This document shows positions 5,458-34,487 of a DNA stretch of 64,000 nt, one piece after another. A program made the position numbers and the translations under genes. Each line of letters opens with the position of its first letter. Position 1 is the stretch's first letter. The notes under the pieces are model-generated. The model made no database searches and was not told the DNA's origin. It was given only the letters and a program-made list of their open reading frames with translations. Source of the stretch: an uncultured bacterium (GTDB lineage: Bacteria; Patescibacteriota; Gracilibacteria; Absconditabacterales; Absconditicoccaceae); assembly GCA_903953935.1 (NCBI GenBank), contig CAJBLF010000015.1, positions 1,039 through 65,038 of the forward strand, written 5' to 3'.

Positions 5458-5979
5458 TTATTTGACGAATAGACTGTATGCATTTACCAAAAAATATCCA
5501 GCCATAATGATACTCACGACAAGCTTAAGCAAACTTCATGTAACAAATCACACGAACGATCATCGTGCTGATTTTAATGCGTGGTCATGATTTTTTCCTG
5601 CATATTTTTCTCAGAGATAGGCTCATAAAAATGGTCAACCAATCAGTCATAATAATCCAAATGGTCAGAGCACAATCCCAAAGATAGGAAGTACAATAAC
5701 CGCAACAACTAATCATATATTACTTCCACGAACTCCTCGCTTGGTTCCTCAGAATTTTTTTGTTCCTCGTGATGGAATGATATAATCTAGTACAGTAAGG
5801 AATATAATGATTGCTGCTCGAACAGTAAAAAAAGTCCAACCAAAAGGATGTCCTGAAGTAAGTTGCAAGAGTATGAATGCGACATACGCTAATAATGGAC
5901 CAGGTAAAACTGGCAGTACTGATCCTATGATAGCTACGATACATAGAAGCAATCAGACAATAACTAACACGATATCCAT
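5458..5979 (-). CDS. DUF456-family small membrane protein
   Basis: ATG 5979 to TAA 5458 with about ten in-frame TGA, all inside Gly-rich TM segments (..GPFGLLgLIGgPFLgAYLgEKYAGK..ARgSFVgFVTg..). Confidence 0.55.
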
Positions 5980-6084
5980 ACTTTATAACTAACAACTAAA
6001 AACGAATAATTAACAATTATTGTGTTTTCTTGTTATAAACTATAACGATTCTGTGAAGGCTATCAAGTTTTTTGATATAGAGCA

Positions 6085-6107
6085 AAAGCCCGGAAATTCC
6101 GGGCTTT
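6085..6107. terminator. Stem-loop AAAGCCCGG-AAATT-CCGGGCTTT
   Basis: Perfect 9-bp GC-rich stem. Short U tracts on both strands. It fits as the 3' end of the minus-strand ORF-free unit. Confidence 0.55.
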
Positions 6108-6903
6108 CAATCAAATATCTTGTTTGTTTTGTGTAATGGTCTTACCATCATTGAGGCTCTGCTTCCTCTTGGCTTACAACTTCATAGACTTAGCTATGGT
6201 TATCATCAAAGAATCCTTTTCTTCTAGACAACTATTCCATGTAACGGCGAAGATTTTTATGTCCTGTGGTTGCATATCTGGCATATAGACATTAACTCAA
6301 ATCCTCAAAAGAGTCTTATTGTGCTTGAAGAAGGGCTTGATTATCGGGCCTTCTCTTCCCTTAACTATGGACCATAGATAGCCTCGCTTTCTTTTTTGCT
6401 CGTGGATACCTTTGTGTATTTCTTGTGAAGACCTTACAGGCTTCGTGGAGAACCGTCTCTCTTGCCTCCCATTTTCCGTTAACATCCACGGAAATAGCGA
6501 TTAAACCACGCCCCTGCGTTTTGTTGAGTGTCGGGGATTTTCTGAAAGAAATGGATTGTAGGGAATATGAATTTGGTTATCGGGTCCCTATACCCTTCTA
6601 CTTAAAACATAGTTTTATAGCAAATTTGAGCGTTAAACAATTGATTGAATTGATGTACATGTGTAATCGGCGGTGACCTCCCTGATGTAGGTTCGGATCG
6701 TCCGATGCAAGCGCTCTTCATGGCGCGGTTTTTTTGTTTTTTCATGGCATACAGGTTTTAGGCTGGCTCCCGTTGCGATAGTTGCGGAGCGGCCGGGCCG
6801 GTTACTTAATACAGATCGATTCGATTGACTTTCCCTTGGGGAAAGTCGGAGATGCTCTAATCATGACTTTTGTTTTAGTTAGCACTATTTTTGTTAATTG
6901 TGT
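6085..6903 (-). ncRNA. Candidate large structured RNA (about 0.8 kb), family unknown
   Basis: No credible ORF under table 11 or 25, and visibly GC-richer than the flanks. A consensus promoter lies upstream (6910-6937) and the 6085-6107 hairpin downstream. Contains many local hairpins, e.g. GACTTTCCC-TTG-GGGAAAGTC at 6825-6848. Confidence 0.3.
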
Positions 6904-6909
6904 ATCAAT

Positions 6910-6937
6910 CTTATAATTATTTTATATTAAATGTCAA
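6910..6937 (-). promoter_or_regulatory. Sigma70-like promoter, TTGACA-16 nt-TATAAG
   Basis: On the minus strand, TTGACA is at 6937-6932 and TATAAG at 6915-6910. Confidence 0.55.
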
Positions 6938-6964
6938 GTCTTTTTAATTTTATTTTAGGACAAG

Positions 6965-7315
6965 AAAAAGGAGTAGGTTGAGAGCTATGGAAACCATAGA
7001 TGAACCTGACTCCTTCATTGTTTGGCAGGTAGCTGCTATAGCAATACTGCCAGATGCGGATTTACCGCGATAATGATGATAATAAAAACCGGGCCGATTA
7101 GCGTTGCCCGTATTGCTCTTTTTCTAAGCTGCGGTCGGAACATTACAGATGGGAGCCTAATCCACCTGAACATCTGATATGGACGGCGTGCCTCGCATTG
7201 TGTTGTTCCCATTCCTCTCGTACTAGGGAACTTCATGATATGCATAATGATGCTTAGAAAAAGAATACTGATATCCAAGATGCCAAAGAACAATGAGAAT
7301 TTTGCTACCTAGGAT
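6965..7315 (-). ncRNA. Candidate structured RNA (about 300-350 nt) with a sarcin-ricin-loop-like hairpin; family unknown
   Basis: ORF-free and GC-richer than the flanks. Ends in a long hairpin (6970-7013) followed by TTTTTCTTG on the minus strand. The 5' end is not defined. Confidence 0.3.
7205..7231 (-). other. Hairpin GUUCCC-UAGUACGAGAGGAAU-GGGAAC mimicking 23S rRNA helix 95 (sarcin-ricin loop)
   Basis: 15 consecutive nt (CCUAGUACGAGAGGA, 7213-7227) are identical to the E. coli 23S SRL region. The loop length is the same and is closed by a 6-bp stem. No flanking rRNA similarity. Confidence 0.5.
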
Positions 7316-7376
7316 TGGTGTGTTATATATATTTTAAGCAATAAGACAAGAGATAGTTTTTCGCGTTTATTTCGCT

Positions 7377-8657
7377 CTATAAACTTGGTACAGGAAATTT
7401 TAAACTGATCTCTCTGACTTTATTTCTCAGTTCTGCTAAGACTTCTTCATTATCTTTATTTTTGAATGCTTGATCCATATATTCAACAATTTGTTTTACC
7501 TCTTCTTCTTTCACTCCTCTAGTAGTCATCGCTGGTAGACCAATTCTCAATCCAGATGGGCGAAATGGAGGATTTGGATCGTCGGGTATAGTAGATTTTG
7601 ATGTTGAAATTCAGATTTTATCTAATGTTTTTTCTGCGACAGATCAATCTAATTCAGTACCACTAAAATCAAGAATCACCATGTGATTCTCTGTTCATCC
7701 CGTCACTAGTTTGTATCCAAGAGCCAATAACTCGGACGCTAAAACTTGTGCGTTTTTGAGGGCTTGCTCCGCATATGCTTTGAATGCTGGTGTAGCTGCT
7801 TCATGTAATGCCACAGCGATAGCGGCAATAGTATTCATGTGTGGTCATCATTGCATACCAGGGAATACTGCTCTATCGATTCTCGTAGGAATATTTTCTA
7901 TCGTATCGTCAGGTTTTTTGAGTGGATTGGAAACAACTCATTTACTAAGTATCAACGCTCCTCTGGGTCCACGAAGTGATTTGTGTGTTGTAGTCATCAT
8001 CACATGAAAACCATAATCCAATGGGTTCTTCAAAAGTCATGCAGCGATAAATCCTCCGATATGGGAAACATCAGCGAACGCAATAGCTCACACCTCCTTT
8101 GCTATTTCTACGAATTTTTCATAGTCGAGTTCTCTTGGATATGCAGAGAATCCTGCAAGAATAATTTTTGGTTTGTATTCATGCGCCAATGTACGAACTT
8201 GATCAAAATCAACGGTCCCATCAGCCTTTGTTTTGTATCTCATAAAATTAAATACTTTGGAAAAAAAGGTAACGGGTGCTCCATGAGTCAGGTGTCATCC
8301 ATGAGAAAGATCCATCCCGAGAATAGTGTCTCCAGGATTCATCAATGCAGAATATACACACAAATTTGCTGCTGCACCAGATAATGCTTGCACGTTTGCA
8401 TGGTCCGCATGAAAAATTTCTTTTGCTCTATCGATAGCGAGTTGTTCTATAGTATCAGTATTTTCTTGTCCTCCATAATATCTGCGACCGGGAAATCATT
8501 CAGAATATTTATTGGCAAAAACCGAAGATTGTGCTTCAAGCACTGCAGGAGATTGGTAATTCTCACTTGCAATAAGCTCCATCCCCTCTGACTGCCTTTT
8601 TTGTTCGGCGAGAATCGCTGTGTAAATATCATGATCTACATTTTGGATTTTTTTCAT
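7377..8657 (-). CDS. glyA: Serine hydroxymethyltransferase
   Basis: ATG 8657 to TAG 7377 in one frame. N-terminus [39 protein letters not shown] and LSHGgHLTHG, with TGA at conserved Gly positions. Confidence 0.9.
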
Positions 8658-8661
8658 TGGT

Positions 8662-8808: not shown

Positions 8809-10560
8809 TTATTTTGATTGTGCTATCGCTAACACCTCTTCGATTATCTTTCTTTCAGATGATAACTTAGGTATTTTAGTTTGCCCTCACAATGTTTTTT
8901 TTTGTGACTGTATCCGTTGGTTAAATGTACCTGGAGGGACGATATGTATGATAGGCATTTTGAGTAAGATATCGTTTTTACGCTTTGATTCGTAGTCCGC
9001 ATTTTCCTCTTGTAAATATATATCAAGCTGCTCTGTTAATGCCACTAACGAGCATTGTTTTGGGAGTTCGCCTTCAAGTATCCATTCATGAACCTGAGGA
9101 TTATCATCATTATCTGGTCCGACTGTGTATCATGAAAAATCAGATTGATATAGTTTGTGTATCTTATACAGTGCTCTATTGATATGATCTTCCATCAATT
9201 CCTCTCCTTTGAGATTGATACATTCCTTTGTTCTTCCTACAATTTCAAATCTCCATCACTCATCGACAAAACAAATGACATCACCTATTACATAACGAAA
9301 CAACCCACTATTTGTGGTTATCACCAATGCGAATTTGGTTTTTTGTGAAATATCATGAGCAGTTATTTTTCGAATTGGTTTAACATGTGCTGTAGGCCTG
9401 ACCCTTCATTGATCGAAATTTTCTGGCGTAAATGGAATGAATTCATAAAATACTCAATGATTGATAACAAGCTGATATGGAGCCTGTGCCTGATCATTTT
9501 CATAATGCACAAGATCCTGATATCAAAAATATCATTCGGATGCATTATATGCTCAGATGTGAGATATGCCTAATGTATTGAAATATCTAATATAGGGTCT
9601 TGCACTCACTCATCACCACACTACTAAATCCAAATTTTTGATGAATGATCTAAATTTCTTGGGTGATTTTTTCTTCATATATTGTAGCATCTCACATATC
9701 CGGCTTGTCACACCAAGCATAATGGTATGCTCATTGGGACGAAGTTTTTTTATAAAAAGATTTCTTTTGATATACCAATTTGGCTCTAAAAACACCGACA
9801 ATGGATATTTATATTTTTTTTGTAAAAGACGACTTCTTTCCAAAATCATCAATGCAGACACATCAGCGATAATGCTTCCGTCTTCGAGTTGTTCCTGTAT
9901 AGTACCACCAAGCGGTCGTGAATATGCCCCGAACGCCTGTGTTTCTGGGTATTTCATAGCATAGGTGGCAAAGGTAGCTAATCCCGCTTTATTTATCGAT
10001 TCCAAAGATTCATCGGTCACAGGAATATGTTTTTTTCTGCTTGTCGTCCCCGCAGAAGCTGAAAATCTCTGTATTTTACCTGGCCAAATTATGTCTGACT
10101 CTTTTTTTGCGCGTTCTATTCGATACTTATACTGATCATAGGTGACAATAGGGACATGACTGATAAAATCCTTGTACATATCATCAGAAAAAGACACGAA
10201 ATCATGCTCCTTACCAAATGCTGTTGCCTTTGTTTTGGAAATCAAATAAGATAGAATATCTTTTTGTGTCTGTTCGGCATTTTCTAGAGATTCCTCTATT
10301 GATGGATAGATGAATGACTTTAGATAGGTCACAAATATAAAATTAAATGTCTTGGTCTCTAATAGTAATGATAGTAGCCCTCTTGTATATTCACCCATAT
10401 TTTCTTCTGTAACAAATTTTTCTTCGTGATCAATCGATGCATATCTTTTTATAATACGTGCAATCGTTTTTTTATTATCACCAAAAAGTTCATGTACGGG
10501 GAAAGTCCAGTAGTACACTCTAACAAATATATTTCATAGTCTTTTTCGCATGGGCTTCAT
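8809..10560 (-). CDS. GH3-family (acyl-acid amido synthetase-like) protein, paralog 1
   Basis: One frame across many TGA. Motifs FGKEHDF, SASAGTTSRKKHIP, YNASEgYFgYQD, GLFRYVIGD, GRTKECINLKGEEL, LggQTKIPKL. Starts 3 nt after the stop of paralog 2. Confidence 0.75.
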
Positions 10561-10563
10561 ATC

Positions 10564-12369
10564 TTATGATATATTTATCATACCCAATATCTCGTCAATG
10601 TTTTTTCTATCGTTGGCAACTTTGGGTACCTTATATTGTCCACCAAGTTTGTTTTTTGTTTTCATCCATTCATAAAATGTTCCTGTAGGTGCAGCGTGCA
10701 CTATAGGAAACCCGAGCACTTTCGTAGAATACCTTTCATCAGCATAAAAAGGATTAATCGTTCATAATTCTTGATCCAGCGTCTTGGTAAAGATATTCAT
10801 ATGCTCTGGCTTTTTGATAAATTCTATGATTCGTTCATGAGCACCTCTTGCCTCACGTCATCATTCATATACATGTGGTCATACGGTATATTCTGCTATA
10901 ATAGTATCTGTTTTTTTACATGTTTCCAATATTGCTTTTTCTATATGAGATAAGAACATACGCTCCCCTATCATATCTATAAAATATTTTGTTCTTCCTG
11001 TAATCTTTATCTTTCGTGGAGTAAGATTGGTAAACACAACTACATCTCCTAATATATATCTCCAAAATCCGGAACAATTGGTGATAATGATAACATATTC
11101 TTTCCCCAACTCTACTTCTTGTAAAGAAAGTACGGGAACATTTGTTGTTCCATAATTTTCTAAAGCAATAAACTCATAGAAGGTACCATGATTGGTCAAG
11201 AGCAACATATCGTCTACATCATTTTCATCTTGTATACCAAAAAATCATTCAGAGGCGTTATAGACTTGATAATATTTCATCTTGGGATTTGGTATTAGTT
11301 TTTCAAATTGATCCTTATATAGGGTAATGGGCAATCATCCTCGAAAAAACAATTCCAAATTTGGTCGAACTTCTGATATGTTTTTTTTGCCTGTATATTC
11401 TAATACTCTATATAATACATTCAATAACCATCATGGCTGACCATTGATAGAGGTTATATTTTTATCTACGGTATACTCAACAATGGCATCTAGCTTGTTT
11501 TCTCGATCTTCTATATATGCGATATCATCTTGTGGCTCTTTGAGTATCTTACCAAGCCATGGGGTGTTTTTTTGTAAAATAGCAGAAATGAATCACACAT
11601 TTTCTTCTCCTGTATAGGGATTTGTACTGAGTGCTCCTCAAATAATCAATCATTTACCGTTCAAAAACTGACTTCTTGGATTATTTTTGATATAAAATGT
11701 TAATCCATCAATACTTCCTTTAAAGTGACATTTTCTGAGTCACTCCATAGTAACCGGAAGATATTTTGCAGTAGTCCCGGTAGTTCATGATGAAGTAGCA
11801 AATCGATCTATTTTACCAGGATAGGTTATGTCTTCTCATCATTTGAGCATATAATGTACCCATGGCTCAAAATCATGATAATGAAAAATAGGGACTTGGT
11901 TTTGAAAATCTGCGATAGTTTTTATCTCACTAAATGCATATCTTTTTCCAAACATAGTTTTTTTACATTTGTTGATGAGTCCAATCAATATAGCTTCTTG
12001 ATCCAAAAAACTATTATCACGGAAATCTGCATTCAAGGTAAAAAATGTTTTTACTACCTTATTCAATACACGTACGGGCATATGTAAGAGCTGTTTAGGT
12101 ACCTCAGTAATTTTACCTGGATGTCCCAAAATATCCACGGAAGCATTGATAAGATCAAGCGACATTTCCCATGACATATTCAAAATATCCTTTGGCATAT
12201 TCAAAATAAGCTTTGGTGCTTTCAACACTTTTTTGGATACTCTCAGTACTTTCTTGGGAACCGTAGATACGTGAGCTTTCATAGAACAAGATACGTATAA
12301 AAAATAGGCCAACAATAGTGCGTCTTTTGTATGTATTATACGTATGAATGCAAGAATTTTTATATCCAT
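10564..12369 (-). CDS. GH3-family protein, paralog 2, with a repeat-containing N-terminal insert
   Basis: Motifs FGKRYAF, TSSgTTGTTAKYLP, YNASEgFFGIQD, GFWRYILGD, LGGQYKVPKV. The N-terminus carries about 70 aa of short PK..L repeats. Confidence 0.75.
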
Positions 12370-12518
12370 ATATATAATTCCACAAAAATAGATACCAACA
12401 TTTTCTCTTTTTTTCTCATGAGATTTTGTTATTTATACTTTACTATTAAAATAGTATGAATATTTAGAATATTACAAGATTATGTGTACTAGAAATCTTT
12501 TAATCTTTTAGTTGTAGT

Positions 12519-15074
12519 ATGAAGTATACCTCACCACTCTTGAAAAAATTTATCTCTATCAACGATACACCAGAAAATATCGCGAAGAATCTCATATTGA
12601 AAACCTGTGAAATAGAAGAAGTTCATCATAGAACTATCGCTGAGACAATCGTCATATGATATGTAAAATCTTGTGAACAACATCCTGATGCAGAAAAATT
12701 AAAAGTCTGTATGGTCGATTGCGGAAAGCAATGAGAATACCAGATCATCTGTGGTGGATCAAATGTCGCTGCGGGATTGTATGTCCCTGTCGCATTACCA
12801 GGAACGGTATTTGAAAAAGCTGGGATCACTATCGAGCCGAGAAAGATGAGAGGTATAGTTTCCAATGGTATGATCTGTAGTAAAGAAGAACTATGAATTC
12901 TTGAAGATTTGGAAAAACATTCCATCTGGTCACTGACCGAAGATTTGGAAGACATTTCTGACGCCGATGTGTGAACCGCATTGAGCGCAAAATTTCCTCG
13001 ACTTGAAAGTCGAGTGATGGAAGTCGACAATAAATCATTAACCAATAGACCTGATTTGACTGGGCATTTTGGTGCAGCAACGGAACTTAATGCAATATAT
13101 AGCGTAGTCGAAGGTTGAAAGTCAAAAACCGAAGGTCAGAAAATTAGTTTCAATAAAATCAAAGAATATTATGAACAATGCACACCACAACATATCATGC
13201 AAATATTGGAAAATAGTACAAAACCCGAAAGAAAGGTTATCGGAGAAAGTGATGGTTTGAATTCATATCTTCTCTTACATTTGAAAAATATAGAAGTTCA
13301 ACAAACATCATTTTTTACAAGATTACAGATGTTGGATCTATGATCTAACCCAATTAATAACTGGGTAGACTTTTCTAATTTATTTATGAATATCAGCGGA
13401 CAACCGATTCATTTCTTTGATGCAGAAAAAGTAGATGGAGATATTATCGTAAGAAACGCCAAAGACGGAGAGAAATTTACTGATCTGTTTGAAACTCAAC
13501 ATATATTGAAAGCAGCTGATGTCGTGATAGCTGATAAAAAGAAGATACTTGCACTTGCGGGAGTTGTCTGAGGACTTGAAAGTTGAATTACTGAAAGCAC
13601 AAAAAATATTTTGGTAGAAATCGCAAATTTCGATCCAGTAGCAGTCAGAAAGACATGAACAAGATTGAGCCTCAGAACTGATGCAGAATTGAGATTTGAA
13701 AAAAATATCAATCCACGATACACTTTATTTTGTCTGATTCTTTTCTTGGATGAATTAAATTATTATAAAAAAGACCTTGGAAATTTCGAGATCGGATGAT
13801 TATCTTATTTTATTAACGACCAACTCAAAACTCAAAATTCAAAGCAGATAGATATAGATATAAAAGTCATGGAACAATTCATTCTTGGACAAAAAGCAAA
13901 AGGATTTGATAAAACAACAGAAGAAATTTTGAAGGGATTATGATTTACATGAGTAGGTGGTTTAAAATTAGAAATTGAAAATTGAAAATTACATGTAGTT
14001 TGTCCTTTACGAAGAGGTCCCGACGATCTCAATATCCCAGAAGATATCTATGAAGAAGTAGCAAGAATCTATGGATATGATCAGATAGAAAATCTTCCTT
14101 TATTGGGAGATACTAGCTATGTCCCCTACACTGACTATGTCGCGATCCAAAGAAAACTAGAAGATGTTCTTGTAAGAACTATTGGTTGTAATCAAACAGA
14201 AACGTATCCACGAATTAGTGAAAAAACACTGAAAGAGCTTGGAAGAAACAAAGACCACATGTATATGTTACAAAATCCTGTAAATCCTGAAGCACCCTAT
14301 ATGAGAGATGATATGGTTTATGGTCTACTCGCACACACCGCGAAAAATAGCAAATTCTTTGATACATGCAAAATATTTGATATTGGAAAAATATGGAGAA
14401 AGGATGGTGCAGTAAAAAAAGATTCACCATTCGCTTCAGATTTCGTCAATGAACAGACAGAACTCTGAGTAATGCTCTATCAAAAAAACATAGACCAATG
14501 GAACAAAGACCCTATCTTGGAAGCTAAAAAAATCGTACAAGTGATTGCCAAAGAATTGGAACTCGGAAAAATTACGTTTGAAAAACCTGATGTTTCCCGA
14601 TTTCGGCTCCACCCAAAAAAACAAGCACTCATCAAAATTGGTGATCTTGTTATAGGATTTGTCGGTTCGTTACATCCATTAATTTTACAAAGCAATAAAA
14701 TCGGAGAAATCAGTGGTGTGGGATATCTCTCATTAAATATCACTACTATTATAGAGCATACTAAGAAAACTAGTGAACACATATATACCTATGAATCCTT
14801 ACAAGATCAAATCATCCGGAGAGATTTATGTTTCGTTGTAGAGAGTACTAATAGTTTTGATGCTATAATCACAGCAGTAAAACATGTTGCCGAAATCAAA
14901 GAAGTAGAAGTCTTTGATGTGTATGCAGGAAAAAATTTGGGTGAAGACAAAAAATCAGTTTCCATTAAGATAAAAATGGTCGGTGACTGAACGATGACTA
15001 CAGAACAAATCAATGACGTAATGAACAAAGCCATCAAAGCCGCAGAAGGTGCTGGTGGAACTTTAAGAGCATAA
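12519..15074 (+). CDS. pheT: Phenylalanine--tRNA ligase beta subunit
   Basis: tRNA-binding domain ([35 protein letters not shown]), B5 region ([14 protein letters not shown]), C-terminal domain. All fragments share the frame of ATG 12519. TAA at 15072. Confidence 0.9.
13962..13989 (+). repeat. Heptamer array (TTAAAAT TAGAAAT TGAAAAT TGAAAAT) inside pheT
   Basis: In frame it encodes [11 protein letters not shown]. The TGA at 13983 is in frame. Confidence 0.85.
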
Positions 15075-33284: not shown

Positions 33285-33619
33285 GCCGAAACTATATATT
33301 TTATGGAGTAAAAAACAATGAATTTTGGTTTCAAATATATTTTACATTATTATATTTCCTTCGGAGACATACTTTTTTTATCATTGCCATAAAAAAAGTA
33401 TGCAAAAAAACCTCTAGCCAGATGCAAATACAACGAACTGTCATTTCATTATATACGACTTATTTATCTCACCTTGTTCGCACACATTCGTGTGACTCAC
33501 ATCAGTTCGATTATACTGATTGTTTCAAATTTGGGGAGTGTCTGGCATGCATCTTGCTTGGATACTATAGTAAAATTAAAACGTAAATAATTTTTTTGCT
33601 GGAAAATTCTTCTTGATAC

Positions 33620-33646
33620 AAAAAAGACGACACGATACGGTCGTCT
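33620..33646 (-). terminator. Rho-independent terminator
   Basis: On the minus strand, GACGAC-loop-GTCGTC followed by a T6 run. Confidence 0.75.
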
Positions 33647-33669
33647 CCCCATATGAGATAAAGTATATC

Positions 33670-33936
33670 CTATGGTAATTGGGGTTGGTGTTTACCGGGA
33701 GCGCAACGAATTCGTCGCACCTCACAGTGGGCTCTGTACTGATCAACATCTTCATCGATCTCCGTGTTGTATGGATTGACCTGTGGCCACGCATCACCAC
33801 GAAAGTGATCACACATCGGCGTGACTTGTGGGTGCAATTTCCCTGCCTCAATCTTAAAGACCTGATACACTCTCCTAGGATTCAAGTCGAAGTCGAACCT
33901 CCGCTTTCCTTGGTTAACTTTTGCTTTGATTGCCAT
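33670..33936 (-). CDS. Small GC-rich hypothetical protein (88 aa, basic, no TGA)
   Basis: ATG 33936 (MAIKAKVNQGKRRF..) to TAG 33670. Bracketed by two strong terminators. Composition is clearly GC-richer than the neighbours. Confidence 0.4.
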   Translation of the reverse strand: MAIKAKVNQGKRRFDFDLNPRRVYQVFKIEAGKLHPQVTPMCDHFRGDAWPQVNPYNTEIDEDVDQYRAHCEVRRIRCAPGKHQPQLP

Positions 33937-34015
33937 AAATTTTTTGTTTATGTGAGATTTTTTTATAATAATTATATTTAAAAAGTCAACATTACTACCA
34001 ATTTGTTTTTCTCTT

Positions 34016-34043
34016 AAAAAAAACCGTATCTCATACGATACGG
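34016..34043 (-). terminator. Rho-independent terminator
   Basis: CCGTATC-TCATAC-GATACGG, with a T8 run on the minus strand. Confidence 0.75.
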
Positions 34044-34046
34044 CTT

Positions 34047-34487
34047 CTATAGGTCTTGAGATACTATACCCTGTCAATTGGCATAGGTTACAAAGTAATG
34101 TCCTTTATTAAAAAATCCTCTGATAGCATCTTCAATCGCTTCGACCGTTTCTCCATGTTCCTTTAAGAATGTCCTGATGGCATCTTCGTTGAACAATGTT
34201 ATCGGGTATTCTCCCGGCAATAAACTGCCTGTACGTAGGAAATACTTAATTTTTTCAATAGTCACTGTTTTGAAGTTTTCATCGGATGGTCTGGGAGTAT
34301 CCACTCTCTTGAACAGCAACGGTGAGATTTGATACGTCGGACGGATAAGTTGTTCCTCAAATTTTGAATAGTTTTGACCAGGAGGATCAATTCTCCTCTC
34401 AGATTCATACACATCAGTCTTTACTGTTTCGAAACTTTTTATGAACTTGATGATGCTAGCAATCATCATAAAAAACAGATTTTTCAT
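34047..34487 (-). CDS. Hypothetical protein
   Basis: ATG 34487. The track stop at 34074 is TGA, and the frame continues 9 codons to TAG 34047. Confidence 0.5.

Follow-up and report, generated by a model that had tools for sequence, protein, structure and literature searches.

In this study, we analysed a 64,000-nt stretch of contig CAJBLF010000015.1 (assembly GCA_903953935.1; hereafter the window) from an uncultured bacterium of the Absconditabacterales, and found that the minus strand from 6903 to 6078, between glyA and the gene for a DUF456 membrane protein, probably constitutes a stand-alone non-coding RNA gene of ~820 nt with its own strong promoter and intrinsic terminator. This RNA, designated RNA2, fits no described RNA family in Rfam 15, and the family that it forms with its relatives is lineage-restricted and accessory rather than housekeeping. 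From conservation and base-pairing patterns, RNA2 seems somewhat better understood as a trans-acting modular structured RNA, that is, a binding platform such as a scaffold, sponge, or decoy, than as a ribozyme-like fold or a metabolite sensor. The comparisons draw on a glyA-anchored scan with one genome per species, which gave 69 loci (referred to by L numbers), ~35 of them from SR1/Absconditabacterales-type genomes.

The signals that delimit RNA2 are those that an earlier note on this DNA had pointed out. On the minus strand, TTGACA (6937-6932) and TATAAG (6915-6910) are present with a 16-nt spacer between them, and this promoter scored 10/12 in a promoter scan, albeit in a slightly shifted register; the start of the RNA at ~6903 is placed from the position of the -10 box. 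The strong stem-loop described at the other end is there as well, as a predicted intrinsic terminator (AAAGCCCGG/CCGGGCTTT, 6107-6085) followed by TTTTGCTCT, which a simple terminator scan missed because its T-run is interrupted. An equivalent hairpin closes the unit in L001, L008, L010, L011, and L013. A scan of the minus strand inside RNA2 found neither promoter-like nor terminator-like sites, and the DUF456 gene has a promoter of its own, which lies outside RNA2 and marks its 3' boundary. The proposed G+C enrichment was reproduced: the G+C content of 6085-6903 is 0.420, compared with 0.344 on average in the window, and only 0.2% of 819-nt windows reach this value, and the predicted folding energy of RNA2 gave a modest z-score of -2.84 against 20 dinucleotide shuffles.

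RNA2 is non-coding. Since glyA (7380-8660, minus), whose stop codon is TAG, is unbroken only when TGA is read as glycine, the genome uses genetic code 25; genes of the window are fragmented under code 11 and whole under code 25. The 1,397-nt gap between glyA and the DUF456 gene (5983-7379) is the longest stretch of the 64 kb free of open reading frames (ORFs), and RNA2 is its second half. As the earlier note had stated, these ~820 nt contain no credible ORF under code 25, and a check for a missed protein among the ten longest stop-to-stop code-25 frames (49-138 aa) gave no Pfam match at E<=1. Moreover, single-nucleotide indels occur in relatives within the most conserved block (+1 in L059, -1 in L020 and L008b), which rules out that a protein sequence is what is conserved there.

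Neither did RNA2 resemble known RNAs. In a cmscan of the whole window with Rfam 15 at gathering thresholds there were 0 matches, and ARAGORN found no tRNA and no transfer-messenger RNA (tmRNA) in the window; the impression of the earlier note that the region matches none of RNase P, tmRNA, signal recognition particle (SRP) RNA, 6S RNA, and group I or II introns is thus borne out. The covariance models of GOLLD, ROOL, HEARO, and OLE, the large RNA families named there for checking, were unmatched too, as was that of raiA. Even at E<=10, Rfam scans of 5900-7500 and of three related sequences (L013 8440-8900, L073, and L003 12840-13010) returned only noise far below threshold. Self-blastn of 5983-7379 detected no internal direct repeats of the kind expected for tandem-repeat RNA arrays (type III antitoxins, CRISPR, TIGR); its only matches were the inverted repeats of the terminator and hairpins, and the two M2 hairpins described below have just their loop in common. 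Other candidate identities were rejected on specific grounds. The GGAAGCAG motif at 6166-6159 resembled SRP domain IV, but its 5' strand is unable to form the SRP loops, and it is a plain local-hairpin loop, as a second variant of the same hairpin shows. A mobile repeat, such as a miniature inverted-repeat transposable element or a repetitive extragenic palindrome (REP), was dismissed because no second copy of any RNA2 module exists elsewhere in the 64 kb, and a phage origin because two scans of viral contigs gave chance matches only.

The relatives of RNA2 are found in SR1/Absconditabacterales metagenome-assembled genomes, several of which are recorded as 'Peribacteria'. When the gap was compared with the glyA-anchored loci by blastn, the picture was a mosaic, each relative matching different pieces of the window RNA. 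The same promoter, together with a similar terminator, frames this site between glyA and DUF456 in at least 12 related Absconditabacterales genomes (L001, L005, L006, L007, L008, L010, L011, L013, L020, L022, L024, and L059) and in 3 distinct metagenome contigs. The latter came from a metagenome scan in which 5 of 13 stretches were true members and 8 were chance matches in high-GC coding DNA; it added L071/L073, L072, and L077, and L076 turned out to be the L008 contig. The common frame consists of a near-invariant promoter, a variable body, a 3' hairpin pair, a terminator, and often the DUF456 promoter. The promoter GACTTGACATT...AAAT...TATAAGA heads the units in the 12 genomic loci as well as in L071/73 and L072, the terminator in many relatives is of the same AAAGGCCCGG...CCGGGCCTTT type, and AAAAACTTGATAGCC is kept 3' of the terminator in L011, L013, L073, and L077. 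Within this frame, unit length ranges from ~190 nt (L072) to ~900 nt (L073).

The content of the frame differs from locus to locus. The module M3 occurs in L003, L006, L008 (twice), L013, L020, L022, L024, L059, L071/73, L072, and L077 (nhmmer E 1e-4 to 1e-17), and, in a table of modules by locus, the type B domain was present in L001, L005, and L011 and the 5' domain in L001 only. Type A, the unit with M3 at its core, is the only type in L006, L013, and L020, as type B is in L005 and L011; the window joins both, and in L008 a single promoter precedes two type A units in tandem. In L012, L014, L017, and L021 the RNA is absent and glyA is directly followed by DUF456, with glyA identity no more distant than elsewhere. 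In the more distant loci L026-L042, no promoter of the RNA2 type was found. These absences indicate that the family is confined to one clade and accessory within it. The downstream neighbour also varies: most loci have DUF456 there, L001 and L007 have an ORF of 316 aa, and in L006 the next ORF is convergent.

The modules of the window copy are listed in 5' to 3' order in Table 1, together with the flanking signals. The linkers between them are A-rich. Of the two forms of the hairpin pair, variant 1 is the 3' element common to type A and type B RNAs; variant 2 is also found in L008 (first unit), L022, and L073, there with GGGA/TCCC in place of GAGA/TCTC. The M1 motif appears in relatives as AAGGAGGCTATCTATGG with unrelated mini-frames (MR*, MVRE*, and MVNYIK*), that is, the motif is kept and the peptide is not.

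Table 1. Position of RNA2 modules, flanking signals, and rRNA-like 19-mers (window coordinates unless a locus is named)
Feature	Position	Strand	Remarks
Sigma-70 type promoter of RNA2	6910..6937	-	A-rich tract precedes TTGACA-16-TATAAG
5' domain	6720..6903	-	Hairpin GACTTTCCC/GGGAAAGTC (6847-6827), GC block (6801-6781), helix GCTCCG/CGGGAGC (6790-6766); common to L001 only
Middle segment	6613..6719	-	77% identity to L013; putative helices GCGC..GCGC (6728-6708) and GATC..GGTC (6702-6672), read off the sequence
M2 hairpin	6559..6590	-	Stem TAGGGA/TCCCTA, loop CCCGATAACC...; covarying stems
M3, core of type A	6462..6545	-	Pa 6536-6511, Pb 6508-6498, Pc 6493-6474 (loop GGATGTTA), then AAAATGGGAG
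Two hairpins, variant 2	6425..6461	-	GAGA-GACGGT-TCTC (6461-6448); GAAGCC-TGTAAG-GTCTTC (6444-6427)
A-rich linker, then M1	6369..6388	-	Shine-Dalgarno-like AGCGAGG and ATG, mini-frame MVHS-stop
Second M2-type hairpin	6329..6354	-	AGAAGG / loop CCCGATAATCAAGC / CCTTCT
Type B multi-helix domain	6172..6320	-	Homologous to L001, L005, L011 (E 3e-9 to 9e-21)
Two hairpins, variant 1	6130..6171	-	GAGG-AAGCAGAG-CCTC (6168-6153); ATGG-TAAGA-CCAT (6148-6136)
Intrinsic terminator of RNA2	6077..6107	-	AAAGCCCGG-AATTT-CCGGGCTTT and T-rich tail; predicted -18.8 kcal/mol
Separate promoter of the DUF456 gene	6039..6066	-	TTGATA, 16 nt, TATAGT; scan score 10/12
19-mer like 23S 189-207, relatives	L006 8429-8447; L008 8261-8279; L010 7390-7408; L016 7811-7829; L022 7737-7755		

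Conservation of the core far exceeds the identity at synonymous sites. Among these genomes, glyA is near saturation at its four-fold degenerate sites, where identity is 0.34-0.60; for the central 50 nt of M3, identity between the window and its relatives is 0.85-0.98 (0.75-1.00 when every pair is counted), and for the 97-nt core it is 0.72-0.95. This difference shows strong purifying selection on the core. Base pairing is conserved as well. The M3 helices are paired in 95.5% of alignment cells, compared with 30-67% in slid controls, and the six copies of M2 from five loci are paired in 100% of cells, with 6/6 pairs changed on both sides and 0/500 shuffles reaching the score. Four different stems occur among these M2 copies (TAGGGA/TCCCTA, GAGGAA/TTCCTC, AAGGAT/ATCCTT, and AGAAGG/CCTTCT), and the loop start CCC(C/G)AT(A/G)A is shared. 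In an RNAalifold analysis of the type B alignment (four sequences; window 6325-6125, including the variant-1 hairpins), 9 of 50 pairs were compensatory. Thus the comparison with related genomes that the earlier note had called for turned out in favour of the RNA: the core is kept above the synonymous level, and helices carry compensatory changes. Selection acts on RNA2 at the level of the RNA, with conserved pairing and covarying stems. Several features of the data weigh against our overall reading of RNA2. M3 is too conserved for covariation, with one pair showing a double change (C-G to U-A); the register of the M2 stems was set by eye and the loops were trimmed; the consensus fold of the 5' domain with L001 (two sequences) has 14 pairs of which 1 is compensatory, which is weak; and the covariation as a whole comes from 4-11 sequences.

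The candidate large structured RNA of the earlier note therefore survives in a changed form. The region is non-coding, has its own promoter and terminator, and is under RNA-level selection, but it is not a single conserved 'ornate' fold of 0.8 kb; what looked like one unit is rather a chain of separately folding modules, whose number and combination differ among relatives. The hairpin GACTTTCCC..GGGAAAGTC and the GC-rich block CCGGCCCGGCCGCTCCGCAAC singled out there are both present on the minus strand, but they lie in the 5' third (6903-6720), which is found in the closest relative only and has little structural support.

RNA2 and its relatives make up an RNA family of one Absconditabacterales (SR1, code 25) clade, held together by a shared promoter, a 3' hairpin pair, and a mostly similar terminator, and carrying differing sets of separately folding modules between these shared ends. 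In the window copy, a 5' domain that is poorly conserved is followed, within one predicted transcript, by a type A unit (M2, M3, and two hairpins) and a type B domain. Modules have been gained, lost, duplicated, and recombined among species, with loops staying fixed and stems covarying; such reshuffling suggests that function most likely resides in the loops and small domains, not in a global fold. We infer that RNA2, if expressed, may act in trans as a scaffold or decoy for one or more proteins. Some modules might imitate 23S elements and so titrate ribosomal proteins, enzymes of ribosomal RNA (rRNA) modification or assembly, or rRNA-cutting toxins, and the module with the Shine-Dalgarno-like motif and ATG could imitate an mRNA start site.

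Among known systems, the protein-sponge RNAs CsrB/RsmZ and 6S are similar to RNA2 in being stand-alone, strongly promoted, and terminated non-coding transcripts. These RNAs are built to imitate the natural ligand of a protein, and the number of CsrB/Rsm hairpins varies by species. Unlike CsrB/Rsm, RNA2 contains modules of several unrelated kinds instead of one repeat, and it has no Rfam match to CsrB, Rsm, or 6S. A sponge for CsrA itself was considered, as the Pc loop GGATGT recalls the CsrA motif from systematic evolution of ligands by exponential enrichment, and was rejected: GGA occurs 15 times against 14.0 +/- 2.6 in dinucleotide shuffles and is not enriched. The operon leaders of ribosomal proteins (L1, L10, L20, S8, and S15, among others) are 5' untranslated regions of 50-150 nt that copy an rRNA binding site, whereas RNA2 is a terminated transcript of 0.8 kb with no ribosomal protein gene nearby, and its likeness to rRNA is suggestive only. 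OLE, GOLLD, ROOL, HEARO, and raiA share with RNA2 a length of several hundred nt, the lack of ORFs, G+C enrichment, restriction to certain lineages, and many helices. However, these ornate RNAs keep one global architecture, whereas RNA2 is a variable chain of modules without a covariance-model match. OLE adjoins a membrane-protein gene. The gene associated with OLE, oapA, encodes a protein with four transmembrane segments. OapA has been characterised as CNNM-related (PMC11332333). An OLE-like ribonucleoprotein was rejected for RNA2, whose membrane-protein neighbour is DUF456 (PF04306, E 1e-35) and not OapA. What sets RNA2 apart from other lineage-restricted large bacterial non-coding RNAs is its cassette-like architecture within a fixed promoter-to-terminator frame and, possibly, rRNA mimicry.

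The idea of rRNA mimicry comes largely from a second RNA. RNA1 (minus, ~7270-6960) lies upstream of RNA2. It is closed by a 13-nt helix, in which 7264-7252 pairs with 7129-7117, and has a terminator of its own, AAGGAGT...ACTCCTTTTT, at ~7000-6962. It contains a hairpin, GTTCCC-TAGTACGAGAGGAAT-GGGAAC (7229-7203), whose loop includes CCTAGTACGAGAGGA, a 15-mer from the sarcin-ricin loop of 23S rRNA (2651-2665 in E. coli; E 0.006 by blastn-short); this hairpin is part of a 48-nt insertion that is missing in the closest relative, L001, and in all other SR1 loci compared. Five relatives (L006, L008, L010, L016, and L022) carry a different 23S element in the RNA1 region between glyA and the RNA2 promoter, namely the 19-mer GAACTGAA(A/G)CATCTAAGTA of 23S 189-207, which is exact in four of them and has one substitution in L010. 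The stems around this 19-mer, read by eye, differ and stay complementary (CATGAT/ATCATG, TGGA/TCCA, and ACGGA/TTCGT, compared with GGGG/CCCC in 23S). In L006 (8339-8355) and L008 (8174-8190) there is in addition a 16/17 copy of 23S 241-257, AGTAGTGGCGAGCGAAC, the order of the two elements being the reverse of that in 23S. The 19-mer and the 241-257 copies were the top matches of a 7-taxon large subunit (LSU) rRNA profile in 0.88 Mb.

RNA2 itself shows a fainter likeness. The 3' half of M3 agrees with 23S 605-641 at 29/37 ungapped positions (GTTAACGGAAAATGGGAGCCTAGAGGAAACAGAGCCT and GTTAACCGAATAGGGGAGCCGAAGGGAAACCGAGTCT, respectively) and the M2 region aligns to 23S 652-679, the reference being the 23S of E. 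coli. With M3 and M2 profiles, the E. coli rrn operon was the best match in a control set of 0.39 Mb, at adjacent 23S positions (605-688), with E values of only 0.6 (M3) and 8 (M2). Considering the exact 23S loops of RNA1 and the best likeness of M2/M3 to 23S 605-680, an rRNA mimic is the most specific hypothesis. Much speaks against it for RNA2, however. The resemblance is statistically weak, as the nhmmer E values of 0.6 and 8 indicate; six other bacterial 23S genes were unmatched by the M2 and M3 profiles; the 7-taxon LSU profile had no match in RNA2, nor did the Rfam LSU model in a 171-nt slice; M2 and M3 are not in 23S order; and, in a control over the whole window, single local rRNA alignments scoring 30-38 occurred throughout coding DNA. 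Resemblances to 23S 800-832, 1771-1812, 1911-1946, and 2432-2456 and to 16S 521-559 and 949-962 were discarded, such scores being common in coding DNA. In its fullest form, the hypothesis would describe an accessory island of highly expressed decoys, RNA1 and RNA2, with modules copying the sarcin-ricin loop, 189-207, and 605-680 along with a Shine-Dalgarno/start module, serving as a sponge in trans and evolving fast as in a conflict; we put this forward only tentatively and consider it rather doubtful.

RNA2 might instead be a polycistronic precursor from which several small RNAs, among them type A and type B, are cut to act separately, for example as base-pairing regulators, with the 0.8-kb RNA as a mere transport form. 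In favour of such a precursor, relatives have type A and type B in shorter transcription units of their own, the linkers between modules are A-rich, and L008 has two type A units in tandem. The scan of the strand, on the other hand, found neither promoters nor terminators inside the unit, a processing signal is not known, and conservation falls on structured loops and helices rather than on single-stranded seeds. We regard a precursor as unlikely, and it departs from a trans-acting modular RNA in the processing step only.

The rRNA-like segments could also be read as decay. A scrambled 23S/16S pseudogene, without function but with an old strong promoter still driving it, would fit the short rRNA-like segments of RNA2 and the stronger ones of RNA1, the G+C content, which like that of rRNA exceeds the genome average, and the patchy occurrence among relatives. 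Fragmented or pseudogenised rRNA indeed has short 23S-like stretches in common with RNA2, but in RNA2 they are scrambled, set in covarying hairpins of their own, and under purifying selection. Conservation of the M3 core and of the promoter is well above that of the saturated synonymous sites, stems covary while loops are fixed, the rRNA-like pieces are not collinear with an rRNA operon, and most of RNA2 has no detectable rRNA similarity, the Rfam models of the large and small subunit rRNAs finding nothing. A pseudogene is therefore improbable.

A cis-acting leader of the DUF456 gene, that is, a riboswitch or attenuator working through termination and read-through at 6107-6085, is suggested by gene order. 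The unit lies directly upstream of DUF456 in the same orientation in the window, L008, L011, L020, L059, L072, and L077, and the layout of promoter, structured RNA, terminator, and gene is that of a leader. However, a conserved TTGATA-16-TATAGT promoter separates the terminator from the gene, the next gene is a different one in L001 and L007 and convergent in L006, and DUF456 follows glyA without the RNA in L012, L014, L017, and L021. A body of ~190 to 900 nt with varying content is moreover unlike an aptamer, so we give this possibility little credence. That RNA2 codes for small proteins, one or several, starting for instance at the Shine-Dalgarno-like motif and ATG (6388-6369), is most improbable: the motif and ATG do recur in relatives and code-25 frames of 49-138 aa exist, but the mini-frames are wholly different (MR*, MVHS*, MVRE*, and MVNYIK*), 1-nt indels fall in the most conserved block, and no frame has a Pfam match.

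As to the surroundings of the locus, the DUF456 gene (5982-5461, minus; PF04306, E 1e-35) lies downstream of RNA2, and the neighbours are ordinary: glyA, a GH3-family gene and a second, putative one, GH26, a MoxR ATPase, an HD-domain protein, and a large ORF (12504-15071). This makes a neighbourhood of defence genes or mobile elements unlikely. Two large tandem ORFs (8812-10563 and 10567-12432, minus) stand upstream of glyA; the former has Pfam GH3-family N, middle, and C domains, and it is unusual for a reduced genome to encode a GH3 protein (acyl-adenylate/amido synthetase type). In L008 (7291-7986), and also in L002, L005, L009, and L015, a gene for an RsuA/RluB-family rRNA pseudouridine synthase (S4 and PseudoU_synth_2 domains) is located between glyA and the RNA island, and it is absent at the window site. 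Small ORFs occur between RNA1 and RNA2 or just upstream in L008 (8507-8758), L010 (~7601-7965), and L072 (minus, upstream of the RNA2 promoter); that of L008 has no Pfam match, and those of L010 and L072 are Cys-rich. The site behaves as a hotspot of variable content. Between the RNA2 terminator and DUF456, L020 (7600-7700) and L077 (~1630-1500, minus) have a long palindrome, GTCATTGCGAG...CTCGCAATGAC, which has the look of a dispersed REP-like repeat; the window copy lacks it. Elsewhere in the window, another long gap (33342-34371, minus) has consensus-like promoters at 34542-34515 and 33989-33960; it was rejected as a non-coding RNA, as two small ORFs start there instead, at ~34486 and ~33936.

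Bacteria of candidate phyla such as SR1 have not been cultured; their genomes are tiny, and a life on other cells is assumed for them. To our knowledge, almost nothing has been described of their non-coding RNAs. It is noteworthy that a reduced genome devotes 0.8 kb behind a consensus promoter, with a second RNA next door, to an RNA outside the families of Rfam 15. RNA2 offers a concrete and testable new family, one that is clearly under purifying selection, yet is reshuffled among species and dispensable in some. If rRNA mimicry were true, RNA2 would be the first stand-alone RNA to display copies of ribosomal hairpins as decoys, and RNA mimicry, so far known mainly from the mRNA leaders of ribosomal proteins, would be tied to an accessory, fast-evolving locus.

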